A stretch of 64,000 bases of DNA from Amphiscolops sp. MND2022 (lineage: Eukaryota). Location: assembly GCA_964187785.1 (NCBI GenBank), contig OZ076409.1, positions 62,064,001-62,128,000 on the forward strand. Direction: 5' to 3'. Positions 11,686 to 49,906 of the stretch are shown piece after piece (the stretch's first letter is position 1; each line of letters starts with the position of its first letter). The notes under the pieces were generated by a model. That model worked only from the letters and a program-made list of their open reading frames with translations, was not told the origin of the DNA and did not search any database. The translations under genes were made by a program, and so were the position numbers.

Positions 11686-11726
11686 ATTGCCTTGCTTCTA
11701 GAAAGTAATCACCATCAGCAACAATG
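11686..11726 (+). CDS. EEF2: Candidate eEF2 start-codon exon (5'UTR plus ATG at 11724-11726)
   Basis: Bounded by a TTTTTTTTAG acceptor (ends 11685) and an ACAATG|GTTAGT donor. The downstream exon begins with VNFTVDQ in phase 0 and lacks only Met, matching the known ATG-only first coding exon of animal eEF2 genes. It lies 557 bp left of the Polinton. Confidence 0.6.
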
Positions 11727-12283
11727 GTTAGTTCCTTAGTTATGTATTTTAATATAAGGACCAAAATCTGGTAATAGTGCGAAACGATCGAAAAAGACAT
11801 GAATGAATAGTCTTTGAAAGTTTACTGAAATCCACCAAATTATATAAGGATATAGATCTAACACAGGACACCCCAAAGACCGGAAAAACCTGAGGAGTCA
11901 GTATAGTCAACTACATAAGGACACTGAACGCCTAAGACGTATTGACGGAAAAGTGATTTTGTGGATGTTTCGAAGACGTCCTCCGTTGTACTTTCTTGTC
12001 TGTAATTGGTACCAATAACTCGCAATAAGTTACCAAATCCAATATTCAATTAGACTTTTGGAACCTATATGAAAACTCTTAGTTCCTGGAACTTGAATTT
12101 TTCTATTGTTCAGTATTCGTACTCAATCGTGATTTTTTTCAGCCTGCTGTTTCCAAAAATCGATAATATACTTCGACTGTACCGTTAAAATGCTCTCAAA
12201 GTTGTGTCGAAAGCTGTCGTTACTCGATGTTTTGACAGCCATTTGTGCACAGTCATCTCAATGTTTTCTTGCCGGTCCATGGA

Positions 12284-12462
12284 AGTAGTGGAGTAAAGGG
12301 GGGTATAGGTAGATTTTTAATCCTTTGCAACTTTTAATAATATGAAACTTTGGTAGCTAGAATTATCAGCTGAGAGTGACAGTGATATGACAACAGAATA
12401 CACAATGGACTAACCAAGTTTAACTTTGACAGATGGTTGATATTTGGCACACACAAAGTATC
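12284..12462 (+). repeat. Polinton left TIR
   Basis: Reverse complement of 49626-49803 with ~14 differences in ~180 bp (manual count). Confidence 0.95.
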
Positions 12463-13150
12463 TATTTTAGATCTTTTATCAATATAACCTTGAACCAAAA
12501 TCAAAATGAAGGTGGATAAGAAACTTACCATATAGTACCCAGTAAGGAGAAGCGATACCCAGTAAAGGAAAAGCAGTAAATTTACCCATTTTGCCTCTAT
12601 TGACAATAATTTGCCAAATTGACTGTTGCTGGAAGTTCCTAGCACAGATTTTGGATTAAACGAGAAAATTACCGGTTAGCAACAACCGAAACACGCTGTA
12701 ACACTGTGCTAGGAACAGCTTAGGTTTTGGATGGAAAACGCCAAGAAATCATCAGGAATCGCCGCCCTGTAAAAAATTCAAACCTGCGAATGAGTTTCAA
12801 AACAGACTTCCAAAGAATCTTTCCTGATTCAACAAGAAACTCCTTAACAACAATCACTGCGAGTACAGCATCGGATGCCACGGAGGATCTGAGCTAACTG
12901 AAGCAGATCTTTGTTCAACTATCCAGTGAGAGCAGTTCCGTATTCCCCAATACATCAAGTGATTCGTGGGCGCAGAGAAATTCATAAAAGATACATGGGG
13001 TCCTCAAATCCTGGACAAATAGAAGACATTGAAAGTGACAAGTAGTCAAGTAGAGTTATTCAAAATTTTCTACCCAGAGAATTGTCTCCCAACTGAGGCC
13101 CGTCCCAGCGGAAACAGTTCATTCATTCACAAGGAGAAACTGCAAAAATT

Positions 13151-13486
13151 TTGAATTCGAAACTAACAGCGGATTTGGGATGCAACTTCAACATGATTTG
13201 GGAGCTGCAACAGAGCTGCTGCACTCCATTCAATGATAGCGAAGACTCTGAAAAACTTTTGTTTCTAAGCCAAAGATTAGATGAGCTGCAGAGGTCTCAA
13301 GCAGTATTCGAAGACAGTGTGCTTGACTTTTTTGGGCTGCTTGAGCGAGGCTTCGGGACAATCCAAGCTTCGCATCACAATAATGTTCTGTCAGTGGATT
13401 TGGGATTTTCGGACGCACGTTGCCAATTGAAAGCGTTGAAGGTCAAAACTCGAAAACTGATGATGTCGAAGAAAAAGCGAGAGTAA
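13151..13486 (+). CDS. Uncharacterised Polinton ORF (coiled-coil-like, basic C-terminus)
   Basis: 111-aa ORF inside the element, co-oriented with the + strand gene block; no motif recognised. Confidence 0.3.
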   Translation: MNSKLTADLGCNFNMIWELQQSCCTPFNDSEDSEKLLFLSQRLDELQRSQAVFEDSVLDFFGLLERGFGTIQASHHNNVLSVDLGFSDARCQLKALKVKTRKLMMSKKKRE

Positions 13487-13604
13487 ACTACACCACTGAT
13501 TTGTTCACATTCATTGATGACAATGCACAATTTCCCTATATCATTCATTAAAGTTTTTTGTTGAGGAACAGTTGCTTTAATTTGGATGAAATGAAGCTTT
13601 CAAA

Positions 13605-13979
13605 ATGAAAGATTTTTTTAAAGCTAGTGAATTGCAAACTGCTTTGAGCAAAGTTGGTTACCTTTTCCCAAGAAATACATTGCGAAAAAACGCCTTTCTG
13701 GCAGTTTGCTGCTGTATTGATAAAGTTATTAATTTGTGTGAGATCAATGACATGGTCAACTTTGGGGGCCTAAAAGGTCCCGGAAACAGTATATTGGACA
13801 AATACCTCAAACATTTCAAAATCTTCCGACTTCACGCAATTTTTCACGATGCGTTCGGTTTCATGAAAAACAATTTCGATCTTGGACCGGGATATGTTTA
13901 TGCTATCTCAAAAACAATTTTTCACGAACAGTGTGCTACTTGGAAATTTTACGGCTGCAAATGGAGCTATACAAGATAA
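13605..13979 (+). CDS. Polinton PLA2-like (parvovirus-type phospholipase A2) protein, probably 3'-frameshifted
   Basis: GGLKGPGNSILD (GPGN Ca-binding loop) followed by HAIFHDAF (HD catalytic motif). Confidence 0.6.
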   Translation: MKDFFKASELQTALSKVGYLFPRNTLRKNAFLAVCCCIDKVINLCEINDMVNFGGLKGPGNSILDKYLKHFKIFRLHAIFHDAFGFMKNNFDLGPGYVYAISKTIFHEQCATWKFYGCKWSYTR

Positions 13980-14575
13980 CAGAATATGACAAGTTTGTGC
14001 TTTAACGTTCAGTTCCAATCCAGCTTGCTCAGATGTCAGTTGTGCGCTCTTACAATGAAAATTCAATTTCACTACCTATCTCTCTCACAGCCAATTTTTC
14101 AGCTCGCTTAAATTCAAAAACGATTCTTGTTTCCATCAAGCAGTCGACCATTTCAAGTACAAAAAGTGGACAGACTTGGAGTGGAATTCATTTAAATGTG
14201 AACGGCTTGCAAAATCTCAATCAAGTTATCAATTTTGTTTTGAACATCAACCCCTATCAAAAGATATTTTTTGAAGAACAATGACAGATCAACCAGCGAA
14301 GGGGATTTAGTTGATGCACTGGATGCTAGCGACGTTAACTTCGGCAACCAAAATCGGAAAAGATCGCCATTCGAATTAAATTGAAATTGCTGCTGTTTCA
14401 GAAAAAGTATTCGCAACAGAACACTTTTCATTCTGCCCTTTCACTACTCAACAATTTTTGCAGTTGGTCTATTCAGTATTGGGTACTTAGCACTCAGTTC
14501 TCAAACTCATTATCATTCCGGCGTCTTGGCATTACTGTCTGCTTGTATTGGATTCATCATTCCGAGTCCAAGAGC

Positions 14576-15200
14576 ATGAACAGAAGAATTAAAGCGAGAA
14601 GTCCTCATTGTTTCAATTCTATTGACTGGCCAGGAGAATGCGGAAAAACTGAACTTGTGTCGCAAATGTTGCAGAATCAGCAAAAAATTTCTGGCCAACC
14701 TTCAAAAAAACTAATTTTTACAACCACTTCCGAGATAATTACCAGTCTTCATTGCTTGGGGCTTTGGCGTCAGATGAAAGAACATCAATGGAATTTCATC
14801 AAGGTCTCCAATGGTGTGCCGTCGACAAGTGTGAGACGCAAAAGATGAGAGCGTTGATTGATATCGATGAATTGTATCAAGATGCCTGCGGAGACAAAAC
14901 ATTTTTGAGCTTAGTTGTCGCGGAACGTCATCTGAATATTCACTTGATTATACTGAAGTACAACCTCTATCAACCTTCGAAAAATTCAAAAACTATCGAC
15001 TTGAATGTTACGCAGTTACTTTTCTTCAAGAGCCCTCGCGATATTGAACATATTGGCGTGTTGGGAAGACAAATGGGCGATCGACAGGTTTCATATAAAA
15101 GAGCTACACCAAGGCCTTTTGGCCATTTGTTGATTGACTTGGATTCACAAGTGGACCCTAAACTCAATTAGTCTACAGACTGCGCGGGCAACAAACCTTC
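14576..15200 (+). pseudogene. A32/FtsK-like packaging ATPase, frameshifted
   Basis: Walker A PGECGKT, Walker B LIDIDEL, motif ERHLNIHLIILKYNL, and FFKSPRD...PFGHLLIDL, split over two frames. Confidence 0.9.
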
Positions 15201-15266
15201 TGAATTTTACATTTTTTCGACTAAAATAACTGAAACTGTGGAAATTGAGTCGACGAAACATTTATA

Positions 15267-15497
15267 TGCTTGATTTGTTCACCAATATGAAACCTGTTGT
15301 CAAACAAACTTTTTTACTTCATTGCTCGAACAAAATAATAAAGTTTTTTTGGTTTTGCAATAGTCTTTTCAGTGTGGTTCACTACCGAATCATAATGGCT
15401 TCCAACGTCTCTCGCAAAGACTTGGAGAAATTCACAAGCCTGATAGACTTTCTCTGTGCAAGGAGTAACAAAATTGTCGAAAAACGTCAGTCGTTGT
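15267..15497 (+). pseudogene. Small Polinton ORF interrupted by the Gypsy insertion
   Basis: The ORF ends at KRQSLL exactly where the LTR end TGTGATAATCC starts (15498). Confidence 0.45.
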
Positions 15498-18595: not shown

Positions 18596-19320
18596 TGTGA
18601 TAATCCTCTCCTGCGTCTGATTTTTCGTTTTAGAGTATAGTTACGTCTACGTCCGATTCATTCAGCAGGATGTTTCAATTTTCATTTTTCATGCTCTAAG
18701 AGTCTCGTTACCTGTAATGGGGGTTCCTACTTGAGTTACTTCTAGTTCTCTATTTGTGGAAGGAGTTACCAGTCTTCTAGATTGTCTATTACGTCTGTTT
18801 TTCATACTGCTTTGAGTGAAAAATAGGTTCTGGCTTATGGGGAAGCATTTGATTTATCTTTTTTATTCAAAAGAACAAGATCTGATGGTATCACAATGTT
18901 ACCAAAAGATATACAGATGTACGAAGAGAACAACTGCACTGTTTAACGGTTGATATTTGAATGAATCTCCTTCTCAGTTAACAATGAAGTAGCTCCAAAA
19001 AACACCCTGACACTCCATTTTTACCATAGTCATTGTTGGAAAAAGGTAAAAACAGAATTGCATCAGGTAATGTCATACTATTTATAACATTAGCTCAAGT
19101 CCATGACATTCAAAATTTGGCTAGGGAAAGGACTAGAGAAACCCTGGAAATTACCTAAAATATAGAATAGAATGCATTTGGGTTGATTTCCAAATAGCAC
19201 TAGTTCACGTATTCACGTTATATAGTTGGTCCTGCTGGAAACGCCTAGTGACGAGTGTGCGTCACTACTCCTTCCGCAAGATGCCGCATAGTGTCTCTGC
19301 AAAAAGCGCACAGTGACGAT
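18596..19320 (-). repeat. Internally deleted Gypsy LTR variant (same variant at 26853-27569)
   Basis: Shares deletions (CCGATTCATTCAGCAGG; CTCTAAGAGTCTCGTTACC) and point variants with 26853-27569. Confidence 0.85.
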
Positions 19321-19346
19321 GTGTTGTCGGTTGGCTCCTGTCATCA

Positions 19347-20496
19347 TGTGATAATCCTCTTCTGCATCTGATTCTTCGTTTGAGAGTATAGTTACGTCTA
19401 CGTCCGATTCGTTTTGAAATAACGGTTTAGCAGGATGTTTCAATTGTTTCTTTTCTGAAGCTCTAAGGGGATAATCATCGTTTTCAGTATCTGAGTTTTC
19501 GTTTTTAGACGCGTGAACTCCTTTAGACTTATTTGTTTTGGATCCCGACGGCTGTGAATCTTTGATTTCGTTGATTTCTGACCTCGGGTTTGTTACAGTT
19601 TATGCACTTTGGTTGGACTTTATTTCCTCAAAGAGTGTTTTGAGTTTGTTTCCATTTCTTTTCTCATCTTTTCAATCTTATCGCTATTCTTTTGTTCCAT
19701 GATCTGATACTTGAATTTCGTTACTCATCTGACTGACTGGGTTCAGTAATTTTGTTTTCTAAGTTGTTTTCACCTAAACTCCCTTGAACTACAGTATTAA
19801 TACTAGTTAAAGTCTCGTTACCTGTAATGGGCGTTCCTACTTGAGTTACTTCTACTTCTCTATCTGGGGAAGGAGTTTCCAATCTTCTAGAACGTCTATT
19901 ACGTCTGTTTCACATATTGCTTCGAGTGAAAACAAGGTTCTGGCTTTTGTGGAAGCATTTGAATTATCTTGTTTATTCAAAAGAACAAGATCTGAGGGTA
20001 TCACAATGTTACCAAAAGGCTTACAGATGTATGAAGAGAACAACTGCACTAGTTAACGGTTGAGATGTGAATGAATCTCCCTCTCACTTCACAATGAAGT
20101 AGCTCCAAAAAGACCCTGACACTCCTTTTTTACCATAGTCATTGTTGGAAAAAGGTAAAAATAGAATTGCATCAGGTAATGTCATACTATTTATAACATT
20201 AGCTCAAGTCCATGACATTCAAAATTTGGCTAGGGAAAGGACTAGAGAAACCCTGGAAATTACCTAAAATATAGAACAGAATGCATTTGGGATGATTTCC
20301 AAATAGCACTAGTTCACGTATTCACGTTATATAGTTGGTCCTGCTGGAAACGCCTAGTGACGAGTGTGCGTCACTACACCTTCCGCAAGATGCCGCATAG
20401 TGTCTCTGCAAAAAGCGCACAGTGACGAGTATGTTCATTAGCAACTTGAGGAAGGGTTTCATTCAAGGCAAACATTACATAAGTGTTATAACTACA
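19347..20496 (-). repeat. Gypsy LTR copy A3
   Basis: TGTGAT start; the other end is CATTACA (20479) or ACTACA (20496), exact boundary uncertain. Confidence 0.8.
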
Positions 20497-21700
20497 TGAC
20501 TTCTTGAAAAACTAACAGAAATACAAAACAAAATGCTAGTGCGGTGGTTTAAAGTTTAGATTCACATCCTAGCTTTGAGTGTTTGTTGCGGCTGTCCTCT
20601 TGTTTGGCTTTGAATACTGATGCGCCACGGCACCCATGCAACTCCTGGGTTGCGACAGTTGGCAACTAAAAATGGAATAAAACTTTTCATCTTATAGAAC
20701 GTTCAATTTTTGATCTTTTGATGAAACACCATGATATCGTGCAGTAGCATCAAAGAATTTGTTCTGATAATACTTTACGAATCATGTCTTGTTTGTCTTT
20801 GAAGTCTACCAAATTAGAAATCACAAGATTCGAGATCGCAAATCTCAGTGAATCCTTCCCACAAGCAATCCTGCCGAAGATTGATAAAAGAACCAGTTGC
20901 GAACAGCAAGGAACAAATGCGGAAAAAATTTGCATGCAAATCAATTCAAACTGGAGGTTAAAAGGTCCACCCAAAAGGAGCGCTCCTGCTGTTGACGACT
21001 TATCCAACAAAGCTAAATCTCTTGCGAAAACGGACAGGATTGTGGTCAATTTGCTTTCTTCGGGACTTTCCGTGGGCAAAGTTGAACGGCCGAGCCAAAT
21101 CTTGCAAAAAATTGATCAGACCAAAGATGTGTTAATTGATTCAAATGCTGGTCGAATACTTATGCACGACGAAGACGTAAACAAACCAGGTTTTGATTTT
21201 TTGAATGACCTACATGTGACCACAAAGTAATTTAGTGAAAATGCTTTGGAACTGATCAGGAGAATCCGGTTAACAGAGTTTCTTCTCGCTTATACAAATG
21301 CAAAAAGTGTTGCGTCAGATATTGTCCACTATCACGAAGAAAGTGATTTGGACGAAAATATTGGAAGTTCCTCAACTGCTAAATGGTTGCATTTATATTA
21401 GCAAGAATCACTTCCACGCGAAACTCAGTTCCCGACAGTTGATCTTACCACAAGAAACGTGTAAAATTGAAAAATTTACAACTAGAAAATCTAAAACATT
21501 ATACGTTTGTGTAAATTTTGCCAGTGGATTGAGTCGAGGCTCTCGAGAACATCCTTCAATATGCTGCAACGTATGTGGATGGGTCCATTTTGCGTGAAGA
21601 GGTCGAAAACAGATGAAGGATTACAAGAAAAACTATACCTTTTTATGCACAAAGTGTTCAGCGACAAGACGATTGATCCAGCAAACAGAAGAAACCTTCA
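20497..21700 (+). pseudogene. Polinton segment (two uncharacterised degenerate ORFs), copy 1 of 3
   Basis: Homologous to 28737-29536 and 35453-36650; protein ...KTDRIVxxLLSSGLSVGKVER... is present in all copies. Confidence 0.75.
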
Positions 21701-24700: not shown

Positions 24701-27700
24701 TATCCTCATGCTGTATCATGAAAGATAGCATTGCTGGTTCTACCGATTGTATGTGTTTGATTTGTTCTGGGGTTAATATCGTGAAATCCGCTAAAGGGGT
24801 GTCCATTGTGATTGCCTATGGTAGTTCGGAAAAGTTGATAATTTGATACCCGACAGCATTGTTGTTAACAGTACTGAGTGATGCAGTGATAAAAATGCTA
24901 TCATGGTTTTCATACTGTTGTGATGAGGTGACTATTCCAGTTGCAATATGGTCCATCAGATGGGGCATTCTGCTTGCAATGGCAAGAGTTTCGCCTGGTT
25001 GTAAAGTACAGGTATTTTCAGCAAACAATAGTGTTTCTTGTCGTATCGATGTTTGAGTGTCAGGTTTGAGAAGCATTGAAAGATAGGGGAATGTTAGGAT
25101 GCCTTGAGTGACATCAAAAAATCCGTTATTCCTGCGGAGGAAACACAATCCGATGAGCGGTTTTGGTAGAGTTTTCATGATGATGAAATTCTCTTTAACT
25201 TGAATTCAGCCACTTTGGCCACCATGATTCGGAAATTTGGCGGAGGACCAGTTTCTTTTATTGCTTCATTTGCTAGCACTTTGATCTTATTGAGGTCTTG
25301 TTCGGAGATTGCACTTGTAAGGGCTCCGGTATCAATAAGACCATCAAGTGTGAGTTTTTCGGAGTTCATTGGAATGTAGTATATGTGGCGTTTTCACTTC
25401 AATGTCAAGGAGGTTGAAATTAGAAGGCATGACGAGTTTCGTTCCTTGTCGACTTGTATGTATTCTATAAGATCTTCATCTAAAAGGGGTTGTTTTTCAT
25501 CATTGCAAGAAATTTTTATTGTTACGTGGTCTTTTGTTGTTTTGTTGTGTGTTGGATAACTGAGTTTGAGTAGATTTCGGCGTGGGTTGATTTTTGTGGA
25601 AAATAGTTGTCTGGTGTATTATGTAAGAATTCGTATAAGTCTTCCAGTTGAGTTTCCAGAGGTAACTGTTGTGAGTTTTCTGTTGTTAAGTCAGTTTCAC
25701 AGACTGATGTTTTTGTGGGTTTTGGGCTCAGCTGATGTTGCCAGTCATCAGCTGGGTTTGGTGTTTTTTGGTGACTTTGTGCAAAGGCGTGGCGTTTCTT
25801 GTTTAAATGCTTTGACGAGGACTGATGATGTCGTTCCATTTTTGGTCTGATTGTTTTTTTAGCTTGCTTGTACAGTTCAATAACTTTCTTTTGTGCTTCT
25901 GCCAAAATCCATTTTGGTGGTCCATTATCCGGCACCAAAATAACAATCTTCTTCATTATGGCCCGGGGTGTTGCAGTCTGGGCATTTGGGTGCATCCGGG
26001 TGTTCTTCAGGTTTTTGCCGTTTTGCTAATTTGGGGCAGTCAGTCATCATGTGACTGGCATCTTTGCAATAATGGCAATGATCAATTTGAATTGTTTTAT
26101 CAGGTACTCTTTTTGGAGGTCGTTTTTTGGCGTTGTCATTTTGTTTTTGTTCGGTTTTTCAGTGTTTTGTTCCTTTTTAGTAACGGGTATTTGCGTTTTG
26201 ACGAGGGGTTCGTTTGCTTCTAGACCGTTAAGTTCCATTTTTCTTTCAAGATGTTTGACTGTTTGATCATATGTGCCATTTTCGAGCAAAGTCTCTATCA
26301 TTTGGTGGCCTTATCCTCAAATGGTTTTTCAGCACTTTTTTGAAACTCTTCAAGAAAATCTGGAATTTTCTGATTTTCCGGGATCAAATGAAAGTCTGTT
26401 GAAGCTGCTTTGCTGATGCACTGGACTCCGGTTTCACATACGTTCGTCTAAAGACTTTGAGTATGTCTTCTAAAGTCGTGTTTGGGGTTCGTTGTATGTT
26501 GTTGAATGTCTTGAGCGCCAAACCCCTGAGATGGGCATGAAAATGGTTAATTTTCATGTCCTCTGTTAGGTTTGGTTGCATTCGAAGTGTCGTGTGAAAT
26601 AAGTCTTCAAAGTATTCAAAGTTCTCATTTTTCTCGTTTTTACCATTAAATGTTAATATTTTTTTTCTGATGAAAAAGTGATTGTGAGGAGTTTTTGTTG
26701 GCCAGTTTCTTTTATTGTTAAGGCGATTTGATTGACTGGGTCAGGTGGTTTTACTGTCGAGTTTGACAAGTAGTGGTCTGCGTGGGATCCTACTGTGTCC
26801 TTTAGTTTCTGGGAGCATTGTCTGTGGAGTTGTCGGTTGACTCCTGTCACCATGTGATAATCCTCTCCTGCGTCTGATTTTTCGTTTTAGAGTATAGTTA
26901 CGTCTACGTCCGATTCATTCAGCAGGATGTTTCAATTTTCATTTTTCATGCTCTAAGAGTCTCGTTACCTGTAATGGGGGTTCCTACTTGAGTTACTTCT
27001 AGTTCTCTATTTGTGGAAGGAGTTACCAGTCTTCTAGATTGTCCTTTACGTCTGTTTTTCATACTGCTTTGACTGAAAAATAGGTTCTGGCTTATGGGGA
27101 AGCATTTGATTTATCTTTTTTATTCAAAAGAACAAGATCTGATGGTATCACAATGTTACCAAAAGATATACAGATGTACGAAGAGAACAACTGCACTGTT
27201 TAACGGTTGATATTTGAATGAATCTCCTTCTCAGTTAACAATGAAGTAGCTCCAAAAAACACCCTGACACTCCTTTTTTACCATAGTCATTGTTGGAAAA
27301 AGGTAAAAACAGAATTGCATCAGGTAATGTCATACTATTTATAACATTAGCTCAAGTCCATGACATTCAAAATTTGGCTAGGGAAAGGACTAGAGAAACC
27401 CTGGAAATTACCTAAAATATAGAATAGAATGCATTTGGGATGATTTCCAAATAGCACTAGTTCACGTATTCACGTTATATAGTTGGTCCTGCTGGAAACG
27501 CCTAGTGACGAGTGTGCGTCACTACTCCTTCCGCAAGATGCCGCATAGTGTCTCTGCAAAAAGCGCACAGGTTGGCTCCTGTCATCATGTGATAATCCTC
27601 TTCTGCATCTGATTCTTCGTTTGAGAGTATAGTTACGTCTACGTCCGATTCGTTTTGAAATAACGGTTTAGCAGGATGTTTCAATTGTTTCTTTTCTGAA

Positions 27701-28736
27701 GCTCTAAGGGGATAATCATCGTTTTCAGTATCTGAGTTTTCGTTTTTAGACGCGTGAACTCCTTTAGACTTATTTGTTTTGGATCCCGACGGCTGTGAAT
27801 CTTTGATTTCGTTGATTTCTGACCTCGGGTTTGTTACAGTTTATGCACTTTGGTTGGACTTTATTTCCTCAAAGAGTGTTTTGAGTTTGTTTCCATTTCT
27901 TTTCTCATCTTTTCAATTTATCGCTATTCTTTTGTTCCATGATCTGATACTTGAATTTCGTTACTCATCTGACTGACTGGGTTCAGTAATTTTGTTTTCT
28001 AAGTTGTTTTCACCTAAACTCCCTTGAACTACAGTATTAATACTAGTTAAAGTCTCGTTACCTGTAATGGGCGTTCCTACTTGAGTTACTTCTACTTCTC
28101 TATCTGGGGAAGGAGTTTCCAATCTTCTAGAACGTCTATTACGTCTGTTTCACATATTGCTTCGGGTGAAAACAAGGTTCTGGCTTTTGTGGAAGCATTT
28201 GAATAATCTTGTTTATTCAAAAGAACAAGATCTGAGGGTATCACAATGTTACCAAAAGGCTTACAGATGTATGAAGAGAACAACTGCACTAGTTAACGGT
28301 TGAGATGTGAATGAATCTCCCTCTCACTTCACAATGAAGTAGCTCCAAAAAGACCCTGACACTCCTTTTTTACCATAGTCATTGTTGGAAAAAGGTAAAA
28401 ATAGAATTGCATCAGGTAATGTCATACTATTTATAACATTAGCTCAAGTCCATGACATTCAAAATTTTGCTAGGGAAAGGACTAGAGAAACCCTGGAAAT
28501 TACCTAAAATATAGAATAGAATGCATTTGGGATGATTTCCAAATAGCACTAGTTCACGTATTCACGTTATATAGTTGGTACTGCTGGAAACGCCTAGTGA
28601 CGAGTGTGCGTCACTACTCCTTCCGGAAGATGCCGCATAGTGTCTCTGCAAAAAGCGCCCAGTGACGAGTATGTTCATTAGCAACACGAGGAAGGGTTTC
28701 ATTCAAGGCAAACATTACATAAGTGTTATAATTACT
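21701..28736 (-). mobile_element. Ty3/Gypsy copy B: gag-PR-RT-RNaseH-INT (3'-truncated, frameshifted) with two LTR copies
   Basis: LIDTGA protease; RT KLDCSQAYH and QYVDDI; RNase H SDASF and NTAADFLSR; integrase HPG, DILPNLP and TDLGTHF. PR-RT-RH-INT order is Gypsy-type. Confidence 0.95.
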
Positions 28737-29536
28737 TGACTTCTTGAAAAACTAACAGAAAAACAAAACAAAATGCTAGTGCGGTGGTTTAAAGTTTAGA
28801 TTCACATCCTAGCTTTGAGTGTTTGTTGAGGCTGTCGTCTTGTTTGGCTTTGAATACTGATGCGCCACGGCACCCACGCAACTCCTGGGTTGCGACAGTT
28901 GGCAACTAAAATTGGAATAAAACTTTTCATCTTATAGAACGTTCAATTTATGATCTTTTGATGAAACACCATGATATCGTGCAGTAGCATCAAAGAATTC
29001 GTTCTGATAATACTTTACGAATCATGTCTTTGTTGTCTTTGAAGTCTACCAAATTAGAAATCACAAGATCCGAGATCGCAATTCTCAGTAAATCCTTCCC
29101 ACAAGCAATCCTGCCGAAGATTGATAAAAGAACCAGTTGCGAACAGCAAGGAACATATGTGGAAAAAATTTGCAAGCAAATCAATATAACTCGAGGTTGC
29201 AAGCTCCACCCAAAAGGAGCGCTCCTGCTGATGACGATTTATCCAACAAGGCTAAATCTCCTGCGAAAACGGACAGGATTGTGCTCGATTTGCTTTCTTC
29301 GGGACTTTCCGTGTGCAAAGTTGAGCGGTCGAGACAATTTTTTTGTGAAAGTTTTGCCAATGAATTGAGTCGAGGCTCTCGAGAACATCCTTCAATCTGC
29401 TGCAACGTATGTGGAAGGGTCCATTTTGCGCAAAGAGGTCTAAAACAGATGAAGGATTACAAGAAAAACTATACCTTTTTATGCACAAAGTGTTCAGCGA
29501 CAAGACGATTGATCCAGCAAACAGAAGAAACCTTCA
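28737..29536 (+). pseudogene. Polinton segment, copy 2 (internally deleted)
   Basis: Matches 20497-21700 with a ~400-bp deletion near 29335. Confidence 0.75.
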
Positions 29537-32500: not shown

Positions 32501-35452
32501 GCTGAATTGGAGTATATGTTGCCGGATCGCCTGGTTCTTCAGTGGTTGGGAACCAGTATGTTTACTGCTCTGAATTTTGTTTTAGTACTTTGAGAAGTTC
32601 ATTTATGCAGACTTCCGTTGTATCCTCTTGCTGTATCATGAAAGATAGCAATGCTGGTTCTACTGGTTGTATGTGTTTGATTTAATCTGGGGTTATTATC
32701 TTGAAATCCGCTAAATGGGTGTCCATTGTGATTGTGGATTGTAGTTCGGAAAAGTTGATGATTTGATACCCGACAGCATTGTTGTTAACAGTACTGAGTG
32801 ATGCAGTGATGAAGATGCTATCATGGCTTTCAAACTGTTGTGATGGGGTGACTATTCCAGTTGCGTTATGGTCCACCAGATGGGGCATTCTGCTTGCAGT
32901 GGCAAGAGTTTCGCCTGGTTGTAAAGTATAGGTAATTTCAACAAACAGTGGTGCTGCTTGTCGTATCGATGTTTGAGTGTCAGGTTTGAACTGCATTGAA
33001 AGGTAGGGGAATGTTAGGATGCCTTGAGTGACATCAAAAAATCCGTTATTCCTGCGGAGGAAACACAATCCGATGAGCGGTTTTGGTAGAGTTTTCATGA
33101 TGATGAAATTCTCTTTTAACTTGAAATCAGCCACTTCAAATTCTAGTAGTACAGTACCAATAGGGACTTCTAGTTGTCCGTTGGCTACCATGATTTGGAA
33201 ATTTGGTGGAGGACCGGTTTCTTTTATTGCTTCATTTGCTAGCAAGTTGATCTTATTGAGGTCTTGTTCGGAGATTGCACTTGTAAGGGCTCCGGTATCA
33301 ATAAGACCGTTCAAGTGTGAGTTTTTCGAAGTCCATTGGAATGTAGTACATGTGACGTTTTCGCTTCAATGTCAAGGAGGTTGAAATTGGAAGGTTTGAC
33401 AAGTTTCGTTCCTTGTCAAAGTGTATGTATTCGGTGAGATCTTCATCTAAAGGGGGTTGTTTATCATCATTGCAAGAAGTTTTTATTGTTTGGTGGTATT
33501 TTGTTGTTTTGTCGTGTGTTGGATAACTGAGTTTGAGTTGATCTCGGGGCGGGTTGAATTTTTTGGAAAGTAGTTGTCTGGTGCGTCAGATTAGAATTCG
33601 TATAAGTCTTCGGGTTGAGTTTCCAGAGTTAACTGTTGTGAGGTTTCTGTTGTTAAGTCAGCTCCACAGACTGATTTTTTTTGCGGGTTTTAGGTTCAGC
33701 TGATGCTGCCAGTCATCAGCTGGGTTTGGTGTTTGTGGTGATTTTGTGTAAAGGCGTGGCGTTTCTAGTTCAAATCCTTTGATGAGGACTGATGATGTCG
33801 TTCCATTTTTGGTCTGATTGGTTTTTTAGCTTGCTTGAACAGTTCGATAACTTTCTTTTGTGCTTCTGTCAAATTCCATTTTGTTGGTCTGTTATCCATA
33901 GTGGCACCACCAAAATAGCAATCTTCTTCATTATGGCTCGGGGTTTTGCAGTTTGGGCATTTGGGTGCATCCGGGTCTTCTTCAAGTTTTCGCCGTTTTG
34001 CTAATTTGGGGCAGTCAGTCATCATGTGGCTGGCATCTTTGCAGAAACGGCAATGATCATTTTTGAGTGTTTTATCAGGTACTGTTTTTGGAGTTTGTTT
34101 TTTAGCTTTGTCATTTTGTTTTTTGTTGGATTTTTTTAGTGTTTTGTTCCTTTTTAGTAACGGGTATTTGCGTTTTGACGAGGGGTTCGCTTGCTTCTAG
34201 ACCGTTAAGTTCCATTTCTCTTTCAAGATCGTCGTTTTCAGAATCTTAGTTTTTGTTATTAGATGCGTGAACTCCTATAGACTTATTTGTTTTGGATCCG
34301 ACGGATGTGGATCTTTGATTTAGTTGATTTCTGACCTCGGGTTTGTTACAGTTGGTGCACTTTTGTTTGACTTTATTTCCTTTAAGATTGTTTCGAGTTT
34401 GTTTTCCATTTCTTCTCTCATCATTTCAATCCTATCGTTATTCTTTTGTTCCGTGATCTGGGTCCATACTTGAATTTCGTTACTCATCTGACTGGGTTCA
34501 GTAAGTTGGTTTTCTAAGTTCTTTTCACCCAATCTCCCTTGAACTACAGTATTAATACTAGTTAAAGTCTCGTTACCTGTAATGGGCGTTCCTACTTGAG
34601 TTACTTCTACTTCTCTATTTGGGGAAAAAGTTTACAATCTTCTAGAACGTCTATTACGTCTTTTCCCATATTGCTTCGAGTGAAAAACAGGTTCTGGCTT
34701 TTGGGGAAGCATTTGAATTATCTTGCTTATTCAAAAGAACAAGATCTGAGGGTATCACAAGGTTACCAAAAGGCTTACAGATGTATGAAGAGAACAACTG
34801 CACTAGTTAACGGTTGAGATGTGAATGAATCTCACACTCAGTTTACTATGAAGTAGCTCCAAAAAATACCCTGACACCCCTTTTTTACCATAGTCATTTT
34901 TGGAAAAAGATAAAAGGAGAATTGCATCAGGTAACGTCATACTATTTATAACATTAGCTCAAGTCCATAACATTCAAAATATGGGTAAGGAAAAGACTCG
35001 AGAAACCCTGGAAATTACCTAGAATATAGTATAGAATGCATTTGGGATTTCCAAATAGCACTTGTTCACGTATTCACGGTATATAGTTGGTCCTGCTGGA
35101 AACGCATAGTGACGAGTTAGCGTCACTACTCGTTCCACAGGATGCCGCATAGTGTCTCTGCAAAAAGCGCCTGGTGACGAGTATGCGTCACGCCTTGAAA
35201 CGTATAATGCGCATACTGATATCGACAAATCCGCATGGCGACGAGTATACGTCACTCTTCGAATTATAGTGGTACCATGCTAAGATGCAAGTTACTATAT
35301 GAGGACGATTTCAAATGAACTAAAGCTTCCAAATTATATCATTTGAGACTGGGTATAGGTAAATAAGGGCTCTCAATGACGTTTTATTGTTCATTAGCAA
35401 CATGAGGAAGCGTTTACTTCAAGGCAAACATTACATAAATGTTATATTTACA
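29537..35452 (-). mobile_element. Ty3/Gypsy copy C: gag (deleted at ~34228), PR-RT-RNaseH-INT and the longest LTR version
   Basis: LIDTGA, QYVDDI, VVSDASF, VFTD, ADFLSR, CQIC, QMDIL and TDLGTQF. It has the same 3' junction as copy B. Confidence 0.95.
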
Positions 35453-36670
35453 TGACTTCGTGAAAAACTAACAGAAAAACAAAACAAAATGCTAGTTCGT
35501 TGGTTTAAAGTTTTGATTCATATCCTAGCTTTGAGAGCTTGTTGTGGCTGTCATCTTGTTTGGCTTTGATTACTGCTGCGCTACGGCACCCACGCAACTC
35601 CTTGCGATAGTTGGCAACTAAAAATGGAATAAAACTTTTGCATCTGATAGAACGTTCAATTTTTGATCATTTGACGGAACACCATGATATCGGGCAGTAG
35701 CATCAACGATTTCGTTCTGATAACACTGGACGAATACATGTCCTTGTTGTCTTTGAGAACTACCAAATCAGAAACCACAAAATCCGAAATCGCGAATCTC
35801 AGTGAATCTTTCCCACAAGCAATCCTGCCGAATGTTGATAAAAGAACCAGTTGCGAACGGCAAGGAACAAATGCGGAAAAAAATTGCACGCAAGTCAATT
35901 CAAACTCGAGGTTGCAAGCTCCATCCAAAAGAGCGCTCCTGCTGATGACGACTTATCTAACAAGGCTACATCTCTTGCAAAAACGGACAGGATTGTGCTC
36001 GATTTGCTTTCTTCGGGACTTTCCGTGGGCAAAGTTGAGCGGTCGAGCCAAATCTTGCAAAAAATTGATCGGACCAAAGATGTGTCGATTGATTCAACTC
36101 TGGTCGATTACTAATGCACGACGGAGACGTAAATATACCATGTTTTGAGTTTTTGAATGACCCACATGTAACCACAAAAAAATTGAGTGAAAATGCTTTC
36201 GAACTGATCAGGAGAATCCGGTTAAATGAGTTTCTTCTCGCTAATACAAATACAAAAATTGTTGCATCAGAATTTGTTCACTATCACGAAGAACGGATTT
36301 GGAAGAAAAGATTGGAAGTTCCTCACCTGCTAAATGGTTGCGTTTATAATAGCAAGAATCAGTTTCATGCGAAACTCAGTTCCCGGCAGTTGATCTTACA
36401 GCAGGAAATGTGTAAAATTAAAAAAGATACAACTAGAAAATATAAAACAAAATAATTTAGTGTAAGTTGTGCCAATGATTTGGGTCGAGGCTCTCAAGAA
36501 CATCCTCCAATCTGGTTCAACGTATGTGGTTGGGACCAATTTGCGTGATGAGGTCTAAAACAGATGAAGGATTACAAGAAAAACTATAGCTTTTTATGCA
36601 CAAAGTGTTCAGCAACAAGACGATTGATCCAGCAAACAGAAGAAACCTTCGCACAGGGCACCTTGAATAA
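35453..36670 (+). pseudogene. Polinton segment, copy 3 (continuous with the rest of the Polinton)
   Basis: Homologous to copies 1 and 2 but continues past GAAACCTTC into unique sequence. Confidence 0.75.
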
Positions 36671-38869: not shown

Positions 38870-39852
38870 TGGACCAAAATCGAACTAGCAGCATCCTGCT
38901 AGTTCGTTACCGGATGTTTATTGTAATTTTCGAAGCGCTCTCAAACAGACTTCTATATGCACATTCAAAAAAGTTGACAACTTTTTCAACTGCAGCGAGA
39001 GCTCTTCCAAGTGTAAACAAACGCGCAATCATTTTCTCTGGTTGAAAGTTCAAAGCTACCGGTAGAATAGGATTTGGTTCATTGACTTGGCACACATGCA
39101 AAAGTTGGCAAGACACAACCATGGAGTTAACTTTAGCATGGTAGCAGTTGACACCCTGAATCGGTTTTTTGGGCAACGCCATTGAAACGCAAAACGGCCA
39201 TCGAATGTAAAAATTTCTTCTAGTTCATTAATAACAATCTCAACTCCAGAGGAAACAACAAAGCAAACCCTTTGAAGCTCAAATTCTGTTCAACAAATTG
39301 CGCAATTCCCCTGAAGCCTGAAAAAATTTGGGTAAATAAAGGTCGAGAATTTGCAGGACACTTTTCAGAATACTGCACTGATAATGACATCCAAATTTAT
39401 TCCACGCACAGGAAACAAAGTCAGCGTTTGCAGAGCGCAGTATTCGATCACTGAAGGCAAATTTGTTCAAATTTTTGCACGAAAAACAACATCGATACTT
39501 ATGTAGAAAACCTGCAACAATTCGTGGACGTCATCAACCGCCGTGTTAATCGTGTCACCAAGCTAGCTCCAAAGGAAGTACGCAAGTCGGATGTTCCATA
39601 ATTGATTTCCTTGAAAACACTAATACCCCTCTTCGGCTAATGTTTCACATTGTCCAGCAAATGAGAATAAAACGTAAAAGTGAGACTTTTCATAGATGGT
39701 ACCGCATTCAGTCCACTGAGGAGGTTTTCACAATAGCCGCAGTACAAACACTGAACCCTCCCACTGATACAATTAGGGACGCCAACACTCAGTTGTTTCT
39801 TGGGAAATTTCATGAGTCTGAACTAACTAGATTCGAAGAATCTCCTTTGTAA
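38870..39852 (+). pseudogene. Polinton retroviral-like (rve) integrase
   Basis: IWFIDLAHM, MVAVDTLNRF, PEKIWVNKGREF (WxDxGxEF), SAFAERSIRSLK, LAPKEV, EEVFTI and GKFHESEL; stops and frameshifts present. Confidence 0.92.
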
Positions 39853-43024: not shown

Positions 43025-43040
43025 CTTTTCTTTTTCGGCA

Positions 43041-44390
43041 ATGAATAGTGGAAGCAGCAATGGCACAACAGGCACTTTGTTTACCGAAGCGTCGGAAATT
43101 GGCAGACCATTTACACAAAGTGCTTTGGACTTTTTCGAGCAACCGACTGTTTTGATCGATTATAAAGGTTCATTTGATCAGGAAGTATTTATCCACGTGG
43201 ACTGTCGCGGGCGCCAACTGGAGTTTGTTGTTTCAGCTGAAAACAAAAATTGTATAGACTTGAAGAGCCTTCGTCTAGCTCTGGAGGTGTGCATTTACGG
43301 ACCAGATGGCAACGACAAAATTACACCTGCAGACGTGGACTTCACATTTGCAAATAACATTTTACACTCTTTATTTTCTTATGTGGAGCTCTTTTTCGAC
43401 CGAAAATTGGTTTCCAGCAGCAACAATAATTATCATCATTTGGCCTAAATCGAAACTGAACTTACAACAGACATTGTCAGCAAGATGATGTGGGCTCAAT
43501 GTCAAGGCAATCACTACAGAGCGAATGACAAGTCTACTCAAGAGCTGAAGTTGAAGCAGCTGGACAATTTCCAAAAGAACGAAGAAATCTAAATTAAACT
43601 CCATGGCCCGCCGCATCATTTTTGCCTGGGGTTTCCACCCATTTGCGGTTCTACAGATAGCTGAGCAATTGCGCTCTCCAAAGCGTAGGTACTTGGACTG
43701 CGGATGACATCAAACGAATCGATCAGGCGCCTTTCTCTGTAGTTTTTGAAAAAAGCATCCCTTTTTGTAAGCAAAACTGTGCTGTCTGATTCCGTTGGAG
43801 TCAGTATAGAAGGAGCCCTGTTGAAAAGAGACGCTGTTCCTCCTTACATCGTAAGCCTGAACAAGCGTTTTATAATCCAAGCTGGACAAACTTGTTTTGT
43901 GAAGGAAAACGTTTTTGGGACAAAACCAATCAGCAGATTGACGTTGTGCATGGTGAGAAACAAATTTTTCAGGGTATCGACAATTGGAAGCACGCCGTTT
44001 CGATACAAAAAATTCAACCCGAGTAAAGTTGAAAGTCAGCGCAGCAATGAAGCTCCCATTGCTGGGACACCCATAAGGACTATAAATTGCTTACGTCTTT
44101 TTTTACAACACCATTTGTGCTCTAGGTTTATGAGAATGGCGGGAATGGAATATGAATGATATGAATATGACTTTGAAGATTACTTTTTCCTAGTTTTCTA
44201 CTTAACCTCGTCAAGAGAAGCGAGCAAGACGCTCACTCTTTTTCCGGAATTCACTGGAGGTGGCCTCACTCTCTAAAGTTGGATTTTTCAGAAGCCCTAA
44301 CGGATCCTATCGAACTTTTTATTGTTGGTGAAAGATTCAGTCAAGTGTTCATTTTCTCAAGGCGTAATATACGAAAAAATTTTCGAAGCA
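43041..44390 (+). pseudogene. Polinton major capsid protein (double jelly-roll)
   Basis: SALDFFEQP, LEFVV...IDL, NNILHSLFSYVE, SNNNYHH, ENVFG...RLTLCMV, TPF.Y..F and LDFSEAL...LFIVGE; stops and frameshifts present. Confidence 0.9.
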
Positions 44391-44394
44391 AACG

Positions 44395-44880
44395 ATGGAT
44401 ATCTTCACACTTACAAACGTGGCTGAAAGCTGCTGTTCATTTTCGCAATTGAAATATGCTGGTGTTGGTCGGCAAACAAGTTGTCATTACCGTCACTGGA
44501 TATGATGAAGAATGAGACTGTTAATACAACCAGCAAAATTTTTAGACCTTGTTTTTGAACTGTTATTTCATTATTACCACATCTCCAGTAGGAGCTGTCG
44601 TACAGCATTGGTTGTTGGTATTCGTATAGAGACCGCAAGTGTTTCTCAAGAGGCAATTGAAAACACTTATTTGCGTATGGGACCCATTAGGAAACCTTTT
44701 GTGAATTACACTTCAATTTTTGAACACTTGTTGACACTTTTCAAAAAGATTGGCACTGGAGAAATTTTTGAAATCAAGTTTCTTTTGCAAACATTGCCTT
44801 CAAACACTTGTGGTCTGCATTGTCTTCACATTGCTCATTACTTGATGCGTCTAGCTGATCACTTCATTTTTATTTTGTAA
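44395..44880 (+). pseudogene. Adenain-like (C5) cysteine maturation protease
   Basis: LQTLPSNTCGLHC (LQxxxSxxCGxxC motif) immediately after MCP; the catalytic His region is degenerate. Confidence 0.75.
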
Positions 44881-44989: not shown

Positions 44990-47900
44990 TACTTTTGACA
45001 AGCATTTTTACAGGAAGGTTCAGCATCAGGGCTTACATCGCTTTCAGAAGCCTCGTAGTCTAAAAAAGGACATGCAAAACGTGTAGCATCGGAATCAGAA
45101 ATTTCATCATTGGTAAGGGTATCAAAATTGATACACTGAGCTTCCTTGTCAGAACTCTCGTCGCTTGATTGGTTGAGAATGATCCAGGATCAGGAGCCGC
45201 TAAAATTGAAACATCTTTGTATCACACTCATCGAGTTTATCGATTAGTACAAGGTAATGCATGACAACTAGGATACCGTGTCATCTAAAATGTACCGCTT
45301 GTCATCGTAGCAGCTCAAAGGAACTTTGTTGACAGAGTTGACAAATATTTGATGACAGGTTGATTTGAGTTGAATCATCTTTCTACGTTCTGTTGATCGA
45401 GAAATTCGACCATCTGTGAATAAATTATGATGTAGCCTTTTTTGAAAGATTTCTGAACGCCTTTAGCACTCTGCTTAGTTCCTCCCACGTGATCGATGCT
45501 ATACAAGTTAGAACTCAAACAGACAACTTGTTTTAAAACTTTTCCGTTGAGTTCATCGGTCATTGTTAATGGTACCTTTTTGTTGGCTTTCTCTTGTAGA
45601 AAATGATTAACAGAGTGTTCCGAGAGGTCCAATAGATGTTTGAATGTGGCCATATTTTTATACAATTCTTCAGTTTTGATTCGATAAAGCAGGGAGTCTG
45701 TGTCTTTGTACGCTACTTTTACACGGTCTGCTCCATACCGCGGAAACATCTCCTCATATTGAAACTTGTACAAAGAAAGTTTTAAAAGTCCAAAATACTC
45801 ATGCCAACGTGTGTTGGTTTGTTCCATACCACTGAAGAGGGTTTCAAAGGAACAGAAACAAAATTTTTCTGATGTTTTCGAAACTTTTGAAGGTTGCCCG
45901 TTGAAAAACGTTTCAGCTTGAGTCTCTGTTGGAACGAACTTTAGAGTACTCACTACGATACATATGCCGCAAAAGTGGACTTTGTCATCCAGTGTAATGT
46001 GTATTTTCCGTAAAACGAGAGCAAACCGTATTCTAGTCAAATAGTGCACTGTGTTCATCGGGGATTGTGATGCACAGTGTAACAAGAATTTTTGCATCGT
46101 GATCATTGAGACTGATCTTGTAAAGTAGGTATTTACTGTATTTTGATCACTACGCGTAACGCCAAATCACACAGTGTAACGATGCAAAACACGTAACGCA
46201 TATATGAAATAAGAACGCGTTTTCCTTGGCTGTTAATCGAAATAGCAAGATCTTGCTAGTTCGTTGCGTCAAATGTATCGTGATGCTACGTCTTCTTAGA
46301 TTTTCCATTGTTTTGCTAAAAAAACATTCGACATTAGCTTGTGAAAATTTTTCTCGGAGTCAGTCGCGGCAATTTTACGCATTACAGTTTCTTTGGCTAT
46401 GTACGTTCCCAACCATTTCGACTGATGAAATTTTATCGCCCGGTGTAGATTCGTGACTATAGGACCATGTTAGAAATAGAATTTAACGTTTTCATGATGG
46501 CAAATGTAGTTATTTGTCAAGCATGGTCTCTATAAGCTTTTTATTTGCCGAGCTCATATTCAATCCAAATGACTTGGCAAAATCCGATTTCCATTCTTTA
46601 GGTATTTTTAGTTTTTCCGGAGTCAATGAAAGATCATTATGAGAGTTGTGTATTCAGGGAGGGTACACGAGGTCAACCTCGACGAAGTAACCAACGGGAG
46701 AGTCTTTGGGCGTAGACAGAATTTCATTCAAAGTAATATCAAGACACCATTGATACCCTCCGAGAGGCATTCCCATTTGCATCGTTCCTGCGTACAGAGA
46801 TGTTACATCAAAAAACGCCCCAAAAGTAACGTCTTTTTCAGGATTGAAATTATCCAGATACTTGTTGTTAGCTTCAAAATGCCCCAAGGCACCAACACCA
46901 TTGATTTTTTCTCGGATTGTTCTCTCAAATAACAACAGCTGATCAGTTTCCTGCATTAGTTCCATTTAAACGCCAGTTTTGATTTGCATGGCATCCCAAC
47001 TCAGGTTCGGAGCCGAATAAAAATGAGCTGTATCTAGCCTGTAGACTTGCAAGCAGACCTCCCTGAACCTTTGAAAAATATCGACCAGGATGAACACTTT
47101 TCAGATAGATATCTTGATAGTCGCCTAAATTTTGGCAAAGAAAAGCATTTTACATCTCCAAAGCACAACCATAATCTTGCTCAGTAATTTCAATACGTTT
47201 GCAAACTTTTCAAGGGAGTCAAGAAAAATGTATGGAAAGAGTCGTTTTGGGAAGATACTCTCGGTAATGTTTGGAGAACATGCCTTCAACAACTTGAAGT
47301 CTTGCTTGTCCAAGATTTCATCTAAAGATCCCAAGCTCTGAGACATAAACTGGAAGCTGTCCAGAAACCGTCAAGAATGATATTGAATGTAATTGTGACC
47401 CTTCTTGCTTTTGAGTTTTTCTATGGGCATATCCAAAAAGAACGAAATATGTAAGTTTCATGGTTTTTCGCTGTAGATGACAACTTTTCACCAGTCTCGA
47501 TTACCAAGTATTCAATAATATGATATGAGCGTCATAACGCGAGAGGTTGTGAAAAAATGCCGCCAAGAAAGTTGTTGTTCTCGCACGCAGGTTGCACTTG
47601 GAAAGAGCTACTCCAAATATTGTATCCGTTAGGTGACAGTGGTGAATTACCTGTTGACTTTCTTTCATCTCCTCACCACATAAACGGCATCTCAAGTAAT
47701 CTTGGTTCAGTAGAGAAATTCTATCATCTTTGGATATTCGTAGATTTTACATTTGTGTTTCTCTTTGAAATGCCATGTTGACCACAACTGAAGCAACTTC
47801 ATCCAATGTTGAATGCAGTCTTTTCCTTTTTAAATCTCTTTCTTCACAAAACTGTTACTTAAACTAAAAATTTTGGGTCAGAACGGGTTTCGTGAAACGC

Positions 47901-49207
47901 ACGTTTTTGATGCCGAAAAACCTAAAACTGCAAAGTTACTTCTATCGTCGATGAGAACAGCACCAACATTACACGGAAACTGCTTTTCACGTTCTTTAGT
48001 GTTGCTTCCCACAGTCGTAGATGGATTCAAAGGGACATCAATTGTCTCCAAATCTGCGTACACAAAAAAGGGGACTCTCTGTGTTTTCTGCCACCTGACA
48101 AACTCGAAAAAAAGAGCACACGTCGGCATACGAATTCCGAGTGGAGAGTAAGACTCACAAAATTTGAAACGTTTCCTGAAGTTTTTCTTGATGATAGGCT
48201 GAAAGCAGTTGGAGCAGAATTTTGACATTGAACCTTTCTTACGTTTGCAATTCGATGGTGTTAGTCGCTGAAGTAGATTGGAGAAATTAGTGATTAGGCA
48301 GTAGTGAGAGTTGGAGTCCACTATCAAAAGCAGCAGGTTAATTCGTTGCCTGGAAGTTTTTTGCTTGCTATAATACACAGAAACCAACTGCCTTCCTTCG
48401 AGTTGATAAACATTGATTGAAACATCATTCGACCGCTGGAAAGTAGGAAAACTGAATCAGGGCATTGGCATTCGCTCCGAATTAATTTCAGTCGCATCAT
48501 ATTTTCCTTGTGATTACTAGGATGGCTGGGTTGATCAATGAAAGAGAATATTGCAGCTGCTACGCAGTAAAGAAAACAAAAGTTGTCCTTCTTGTTCTTG
48601 ATGTTCAGCAAGCTGCGGGAAAGACCTTTGAGAACAGTTGGCGTTGCATTTTATGAATATTCACAGGCCATTTGGCACGTAGCTGTTTTGACTTCAACTG
48701 AAAGTAGAGAATATATCATCAAACCAGATCCACAGGATGCGTAAACACTCAAATTGGAAATGAGTTGGTCTTCATGAACGTGATATTTTTTATCTGTGAT
48801 ATATTCAGCCAAACGCATGTTATGAGAATTGAAGAAAGATGTCACGTCATCGTTGGTCAGTGGTTTCACAAGTTTAACAGCAATGCTAACTCCCACTTTT
48901 AAATTGGACTTTTAAATATTCCAATATATATGGAACAAAAGAAACACCTGTGAGCCGATGGAGACTGATGTTGATTTCTAAGATGCTTCAAGAAAGTCTT
49001 GCTTCGGTTGAATTGACTGCGACATTCTCCGCATTCGGATGAGGTAGAGTTCTCCACCAAATTTTGGCTATGTTTCGTTTTGAGACGGTTATTCAATTAC
49101 CGTCGGGAAGTGAAGACTTTTCCGCATGTCTCACACAGATGCATGATCTTTTATTCGAAAGAAGACCTGAAGGAGAAAGCTTTCTTGATTGGTTTTTGCA
49201 TTGACAT
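44990..49207 (-). pseudogene. Protein-primed family B DNA polymerase (pPolB) with N-terminal C2H2 fingers
   Basis: Exo I VYADLET, Exo II FHNLSRYDAH, Pol A FDVTSLYA, Pol B KLMSNVF..KTMENLRRR, Pol C YKDTDSL, and SAKGV and YDDKRY; many frameshifts. Confidence 0.95.
45951..46285. mobile_element. 335-bp CACTA/CMC-type MITE inserted in pPolB
   Basis: Imperfect 22-bp TIR (CACTACGATACATATGCCGCAA / TTGCGTCAAATGTATCGTGATG) and 2-bp TSD CT. Removing it restores ENLRRRSTLKFVPTE in frame. Confidence 0.8.
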
Positions 49208-49625
49208 TTTTAAGCTTTCATTGATTCAATCTGATTCACATCATTTTATAAAAAGGTTTCAGTCAAAAATTTTGTTGCATTTTTGGAAAACATTTCAATC
49301 GAAAACAAATCATTGTAATTCGATCCAAGAAAGCCTCCTCTTTGGAAATTCGATCTTTTTAAAAACCTGTTTTCAGTGAACAAACATTTGTTTTTATTTC
49401 AAAGAAAAGTTCTGAATAATACATGTTTCGTTTGAAACTGGTGCTTCAGGTTGAAGCAATTGCTATTCGAAAGTTTTGATAAAGTTTGGTTCAGAAAATT
49501 CAGTTTCAATGAAGCGTGGTTTCATTTGAGTTTCTATTACATCTTATAATTGGAAATAGACGACCGGTGTCAATTTTGTTAGATTTGGGTTCAATTTCAG
49601 AACCATGATAGAATTCATTAACATC

Positions 49626-49803
49626 GATACTTTGTGTGTGCCAAATGTCAACCAACTGTCAATGTTAAACTTGGTTAGTCCCTTGTGTATTCAGTTGCCA
49701 TATGACTGTCACTCTCAGCTGATAATTCTAGCTACTAAAGTTTCATATTAGCAAAAGTTGCAAAGGATTCAAAATCTACCTAACCCCCCCTTTACTCACT
49801 ACT
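49626..49803 (-). repeat. Polinton right TIR
   Basis: Ends ...TTTACTCACTACT and is followed by TSD CATGGA. Confidence 0.95.
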
Positions 49804-49906
49804 CATGGATTACATTTGTTAGTGTTTCATTGTTGGAAATTTTGTTGGCTTGATTTTTCATTGACTCTAGTCTCTGGAAATAATCGATGGTGGTTTGCAT
49901 TCACAG

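Follow-up and report, generated by a model that had tools for sequence, protein, structure and literature searches.

How does a gene for a core translation factor come to have its start codon 38 kb away from its second codon, and was it ever expressed in that form? The question is raised by a stretch of 64,000 nucleotides from Amphiscolops sp. MND2022 (assembly GCA_964187785.1, contig OZ076409.1, positions 62,064,001 to 62,128,000; hereafter the window, with coordinates counted from its first letter), in which the ATG of an eEF2 gene and the exon that opens with codon 2 lie on either side of an endogenous virus of Polinton (Maverick) type. An earlier reading of this locus, made from the sequence only, offered two outcomes, namely that the enlarged intron is spliced or that the insertion inactivated this copy. 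That choice is probably too narrow, and a third path, in which function was lost later, fits best. The explanation somewhat favored here is that of a now-dead eEF2 copy that would have outlived the Polinton insertion, its swollen intron having been spliced for part of that time.

The gene begins on the + strand with an exon of 41 nt (11686-11726) that comprises 38 nt of untranslated region (UTR) and the ATG at 11724-11726, the only one it contains, and that terminates in this ATG, directly followed by the donor GTTAGT; these coordinates, proposed in the sequence-only reading, were verified. Intron 1 (11727-49906, + strand, GTTAGT...CACAG, 38,180 nt) ends in an acceptor AG at 49906, and exon 2 (49907-50303, + strand, codons 2-133 plus 1 nt) opens with VNFTVDQ, that is, with codon 2, as had been seen. 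The companion statement that no ATG exon lies close by needs amending, since an ATG followed by GT is present at 49887, but this site is unusable as a start because splicing from it would leave an intron of just 17 nt and, unspliced, it does not read in frame. Exon 3 (51449-51909, + strand) carries codons 134-287. Upstream of exon 2 the + strand holds 42 ATGGT sites, and only two of these come with a GTNAG donor, the site at 11724 and one within the element. A run of eight or more T followed by AG occurs once on the + strand of positions 1-49906, directly 5′ of the 41-nt exon. The 300 nt 5′ of that acceptor are 31% GC and 41% T. The assignment of 11686-11726 as the true start exon of eEF2 is well supported. 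The length of intron 1 before the insertion, obtained by removing the element and one copy of its target-site duplication, was recomputed as 557 + 97 = 654 nt, and the earlier figure holds.

The 3′ splice site in front of the start exon (11676-11685, + strand, T-run plus AG) is unpaired, which had been taken to imply either an upstream UTR exon or trans-splicing. The second option is now favored through a spliced leader found on a related mRNA. Scanning metagenomes for a short clade motif led to a single locus, L001, whose eEF2 coding sequence lacks introns and comes from a distant relative (77% DNA identity to the window in exon 2 and 73% in exon 3), and bases 1-20 of L001 equal the last 20 nt of the Symsagittifera roscoffensis spliced leader at 20/20 positions, compared by eye with the leader in the passages available from PMC9911081. 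The same passages put the share of leader-spliced genes in S. roscoffensis at 30.2%, and leader splicing in an acoel is reported as well in the part of PMC2481426 that was available. Because L001 begins with a published acoel leader, the acceptor at 11685 is most simply read as a spliced-leader acceptor, exon 1 most likely being trans-spliced, and the candidate terminal oligopyrimidine (TOP) start near 11373 is not needed. In L001 as in the window, the motif AGCAACA stands directly 5′ of the ATG, with a chance of ∼1.6e-4 over three offsets for a motif picked post hoc. A free alignment of the 40-nt UTR against L001 counts the other way, being not significant, with 280 of 1158 ATG sites scoring equally high. 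Separately, the presence of the S. roscoffensis leader on so distant a relative (L001 1-51) makes the leader end seem conserved across acoels.

A start exon of this kind is ordinary, since human and mouse eEF2 share the layout, exon 1 closing on the AUG (PMC554972, Table 3); there, as in the window copy, the first coding exon ends in ATG. The Oikopleura eEF2 is leader-spliced according to the passages seen of PMC6883708, and resembles what is predicted here in having a leader instead of a TOP start. The window copy differs from all three in that its intron 1 is 38 kb long and the copy itself appears truncated and degenerate. A processed pseudogene or retrocopy was considered and rejected: two introns are present, and no leader occurs in the DNA (the best match to L001 1-20 is 16/20 and lies inside the element).

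The element that fills intron 1 spans 12284-49803 (37,520 nt). It has AGTAGT/ACTACT ends and a perfect 6-bp target-site duplication, CATGGA, at 12278-12283 and 49804-49809, the exact recurrence of which at the second end has a chance of ∼2e-4. The left terminal inverted repeat (12284-12469, 186 nt, starting AGTAGT) aligns to the right one (49619-49803, ending ACTACT) with 170 matches, 15 mismatches, and 1 gap. Inside lie a broken gene for a DNA polymerase B of the protein-primed kind (pPolB; 45262-49144, − strand), whose homologs carry PF03175, and a fragment of an A32-type packaging ATPase (14653-15171, + strand), which was assigned by an ESM Atlas feature score of 0.96 with Pox_A32 on 23/30 matches and had no Pfam match. 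The polymerase is 82% identical over 740 codons to an unnamed relative, P0226, which itself matches PF03175 (E 4e-23), and its one named relative is from the acoel Convolutriloba. Together with the acoel leader on L001, this relative makes an acoel host likely. Mavericks are defined by (AGT)2//(ACT)2 ends, terminal inverted repeats, and a 6-bp target duplication (Barreat and Katzourakis, PMC8097293, available passages), and with these three features, pPolB, and the ATPase, the element is of the Polinton/Maverick type. It is not an intact or active Polinton, as its core open reading frames are interrupted; the 740 aligned codons of the polymerase contain 6 stops and 11 frame breaks, as well as an insertion of 337 nt. 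That insertion (45951-46287) has no evident GT-AG ends, and its ends resemble short inverted repeats by eye, in the manner of a miniature inverted-repeat transposable element.

The description of the intron as virus-filled applies to ∼16.9 kb of the insert, in two Polinton-side arms, but not to the other 20.6 kb, which is an array of three truncated Ty3/Gypsy units in tandem (16006-36650, − strand, by self-BLAST and Pfam). The units are mostly 7-13% apart, with younger blocks at 0-4%, and two of them have one junction in common, which points to amplification in place.

The order of events was judged from the age of the element against the decay of the exons. The terminal repeats differ at 15/185 sites, or 8.1% (interval 4.6-13%), and inflation of this clock by CpG hypermutation found no support, with 0 CpG-type transitions among the 15 differences; terminal repeats and Gypsy units together place the element at roughly 4-5% per copy. 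The exons have changed less, with a neutral-equivalent divergence of 1.65% (0.7-3.3%). Among acoel-invariant columns, 7/196 are changed against ∼18 expected from the element clock (P = 0.02), and among broadly conserved columns 3/158 against ∼14 expected (P = 0.003), both with clock uncertainty included. Exon changes are concentrated in variable columns (18/89, compared with the 7/196 in invariant ones; P = 1e-5). Stops and frame breaks number 17 in the 740 codons of the polymerase and 0 in 285 codons of eEF2 (Fisher P = 0.005). These comparisons indicate that the exons are less decayed than the element and that the gene was probably not silenced immediately by the insertion. Selection on the protein sequence presupposes that the ATG and codon 2 are brought together, so the enlarged intron was probably being removed for a while after the insertion, whether from transcripts of the present copy or from those of a parent locus.

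Three considerations weaken this dating. The P value of the break count moves to 0.03 with the terminal break of exon 3 counted, and to 0.31 if the change at I75 is two compensating insertions or deletions. The surplus of changes in variable columns may have arisen before the insertion. The clock also assumes that the terminal repeats were identical at insertion, that the array arose in place, and that mutation rates were equal.

The same data bear on the strongest competing account, by which the copy was silenced at once, through the insertion or a coeval duplication, and the age contrast arose otherwise, because the element was already aged when moved by helper enzymes or because the exons were refreshed by gene conversion. 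Passive mobilization of this sort is possible, given that both element ends are intact and the duplication is perfect, and the intervals overlap (exons 0.7-3.3%, terminal repeats 2.3-6.5% per copy); in addition, large intronic Polinton remnants in Caenorhabditis elegans reduce the expression of downstream exons, according to the passages available from PMC11414722. Set against this, the age of the element is concordant across three measures (terminal repeats, internal units, and polymerase breaks), a perfect 6-bp duplication says little on age, and either a dead composite of 30-37 kb would have to be moved or a conversion event would have to have occurred of which no sign was seen. Immediate silencing is rated as unlikely.

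What remains of the gene today is incomplete. The rest of eEF2 had been placed beyond the 38-kb gap, but of the 855 codons only 2-287 are present in the window. The match to P0005 (855 aa), the nearest relative of full length, runs out at codon 287, at position 51909, without a consensus donor, and residues 288-855 (domains II-V) were not found in the window, including the 12 kb after exon 3 (best E 0.55). The only nearby in-phase donor is a weak GTTTTT at 51901. The three codons after it still read V-F-D, which has a chance of ∼0.0015 if that sequence is intronic, and exon 3 therefore more likely continued and was broken off. A search for a transposon end at the break found none (best 11/16), and the break sequence is not repeated elsewhere in the window. 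Another eEF2 sequence, P0010, reads through K-V-F-D without an intron; it was not used to place the intron, as it may be a retrocopy or a product of the gene caller.

The residues that survive are also unusual. In a set of 152 distinct homologs, reduced from 160 by dropping rows that did not differ over the first 330 residues, eight window residues occur in 0/152, four of them within residues 56-75. Exon 2 carries F56S, K61N, I68F, I75Y, and S133N, the first four of which alter the switch I region, which no longer has its conserved form, and I68 is invariant in 152/152 homologs. Judging from a sequence motif, this residue presumably corresponds to the hydrophobic-gate isoleucine of EF-G. The EF-G gate residues are named in the passages available from PMC4532990. 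The near-identical, full-length relatives P0005, P0123, and P0127 have normal residues, and the end branch of the window copy measures 0.09, compared with 0-0.015 in the four nearest relatives. As a separate observation, two readings fit the change I75Y (50120-50137), a swap of two bases or an insertion compensated by a deletion. Taken from sequence, these features make it likely that the eEF2 copy is non-functional now.

Some results temper that judgment. At least three departures at conserved columns are found in 18/152 homologs and at least eight private residues in 4/152, and in a leave-one-out test five distant acoel-type proteins had 3-7 departures, compared with 7-8 for the window copy. 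The window also ends 12 kb past exon 3, and further exons could lie beyond it.

These points lend something to the view that the gene is alive, with the 38-kb intron spliced, exon 3 ending at the GT at 51901, further exons beyond 64000, and the odd residues either tolerated or assembly errors. Introns 1 and 2 each keep an intact donor and acceptor, four sites in all, the 285 codons of exons 2 and 3 have no stop or frameshift, the G1, G3, and G4 motifs are intact (DHGKST, DSPGH, and NKMD), and PF00009 is matched. The human EEF2 gene has an intron at the same K|V position. Very long introns are also on record, those annotated in S. roscoffensis reaching 193,733 nt in the passages seen of PMC10565955. 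A live gene would nevertheless have to accommodate the weak donor with V-F-D running past it, the loss of an otherwise invariant I68 with three more private changes close by, the long end branch, and the existence of near-identical full-length relatives with normal residues, and it is considered quite improbable. As a separate observation, the close eEF2 relative P0010, which lies on a contig of 15.7 kb, is missing an internal stretch and ends in an aberrant C-terminus, a hint that degraded copies of eEF2 arise repeatedly in this lineage.

Misassembly, in which an eEF2 fragment was joined to repeats and the distance or the truncation is an artefact, draws on the 1.5-kb array block that is only 0-1.3% diverged between copies and on the richness of the 3′ side in 172-nt tandem repeats; a matching duplication together with terminal repeats at both ends can hardly arise from a misjoin, the internal copies are for the most part distinct at 7-13% divergence, and such an error is very improbable. 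It is scarcely credible that the leader was instead trans-spliced directly to the exon 2 acceptor at 49906, bypassing the giant intron and yielding a shortened eEF2 from the in-frame ATG at 49940 (Met12), because acoel trans-splicing exists (the 30.2% of S. roscoffensis genes cited above from part of PMC9911081) but positive evidence for this use of it is absent, exon 1 is still preserved, as are codons 2-11, and neither the 3′ break nor the switch I changes would be explained.

The favored history, that of an eEF2 copy dying some time after the Polinton arrived, can be set out in steps. The ancestral gene would have been transcribed from an upstream outron, with an acoel leader trans-spliced to 11686 and an intron of ∼654 nt joining the ATG to codon 2. 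A Polinton would then have integrated into intron 1, making the 6-bp duplication and leaving both splice sites untouched. The element would have died, and, with purifying selection still acting on the exons, a Gypsy insertion within it would have multiplied in place into three units. Constraint would have been lost later, with the 3′ part broken off in this copy; alternatively, a parent locus with the element already in place may have been duplicated only in part to give this copy. Weighing against this history is that both the splicing and the death of the copy are read indirectly, from the DNA of this single locus. A bolder extension, possible but doubtful, is that a working eEF2, at this locus or at the parent, still has the Polinton fossil in intron 1 and splices an intron of 17-38 kb from every transcript. 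If true, that intron would separate a leader-capped 41-nt exon from codon 2 in a highly expressed housekeeping gene.

The remaining genes of the element are assigned only weakly or visually. A probable major capsid gene, broken (43083-44380, + strand), has 126 unnamed relatives, several of 415-451 aa, with P0253 matching at 42% in tblastn. One of six capsid-like relatives (∼440 aa) scanned gave a weak Capsid_N match (E 0.016), and no match for such a relative was found in the PDB. A possible cysteine-protease fragment (44509-44880, + strand) scored 0.82-0.83 to Ulp1/C48 clusters in the ESM Atlas, which is below 0.9 and of low recognition. A probable decayed Polinton integrase (39020-39850, + strand) was identified by eye only, from what look like retroviral-type integrase motifs in X-read frames; Pfam rve was not detected in those frames, the rve matches belonging to the Gypsy units. 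An internal 1.7-kb tandem duplication (39363-41063/41071-42764, + strand) shows 4.6% mismatch. No convincing Pfam family was obtained for the non-Gypsy fragments of the element, including 77/87 generated fragments or substitutes and the X-read frames, no relative of the element was found in IMG/VR, and Rfam had no match in the window.

Within the array, Pfam places protease, reverse transcriptase, RNase H, and integrase domains in order on the − strand, the reverse transcriptase coming from one unit and the other domains from the next. Blocks resembling long terminal repeats (LTRs) recur, with no clean LTR pair or target duplication resolved. Each unit is flanked by a coding-like segment on the + strand with a cysteine-rich end (20432-21699, 28672-29535, and 35388-36650), which continues into the right arm in the last copy only, has no Pfam match, and is of Polinton or other origin. 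The low-divergence block of 1.5 kb (18757-20273 and 27014-28513) lies within units otherwise ∼9% apart and may reflect recent conversion, duplication, or an assembly effect.

Outside the gene, repeats occur on both sides. Upstream lie a long TAG microsatellite (4829-4995), a 210-nt tandem repeat (1212-2242), and a hairpin with 65-nt arms (3598-3728). Downstream, 53400-54650 and 60270-64000 form a satellite-like array of 168-173 nt units that are 60-90% alike, and at 54655-60270 an LTR retroelement sits inside this array of 172-nt tandem repeats, with open reading frames lacking a Pfam family, LTRs 4.8% apart (289 nt aligned), a near-perfect 5-bp duplication, and a right LTR interrupted by ∼450 nt.

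The occurrence of Polintons in host introns is already known, and the eEF2 copy adds another case. In the C. elegans eri-6/7 locus, described in the passages available from PMC11414722, Polinton sequence likewise stands between host-gene exons, and large intronic remnants coexist with a spliced gene while lowering downstream expression. In that system alone, repeats caused an inversion that is rescued by unusual trans-splicing between two pre-mRNAs, whereas here there is no inversion, the predicted leader addition is of the ordinary kind, and the gene affected is a core translation factor known from DNA alone. The vertebrate Polinton/Maverick set shares its ends, terminal inverted repeats, 6-bp duplication, pPolB, and ATPase with this element, and 96% of its loci are mutationally eroded, as this one is (PMC8097293, available passages); the present element differs in its likely acoel host and in its inflation to 37.5 kb by the Gypsy array. 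In the Praesagittifera genome, Mavericks make up 4.5% and Gypsy elements 28.2%, and 32,110 transposons lie in introns, a load under which an insertion like this one is expected by chance; the passages seen of that report contain no eEF2 case and no relative dating of insertion and gene death (PMC6451197). A literature search, outside of which most subscription papers fall, found no paper on this locus or on acoel eEF2 pseudogenes.

L001 is a direct observation of a leader-spliced, acoel-type eEF2 mRNA, as in Oikopleura. What the window copy adds depends on the order of events. If the insertion itself ended its function, it is a pseudogene of the ordinary sort in a genome rich in repeats. If the dating holds, the locus records a dated, ∼58-fold growth of an intron (654 to 38,180 nt) by way of an endogenous virus and nested retroelements, much of it at a time when selection still acted on a core translation gene, and it would be relevant to how acoels splice under a transposon load and to what a long first intron costs a highly expressed gene.

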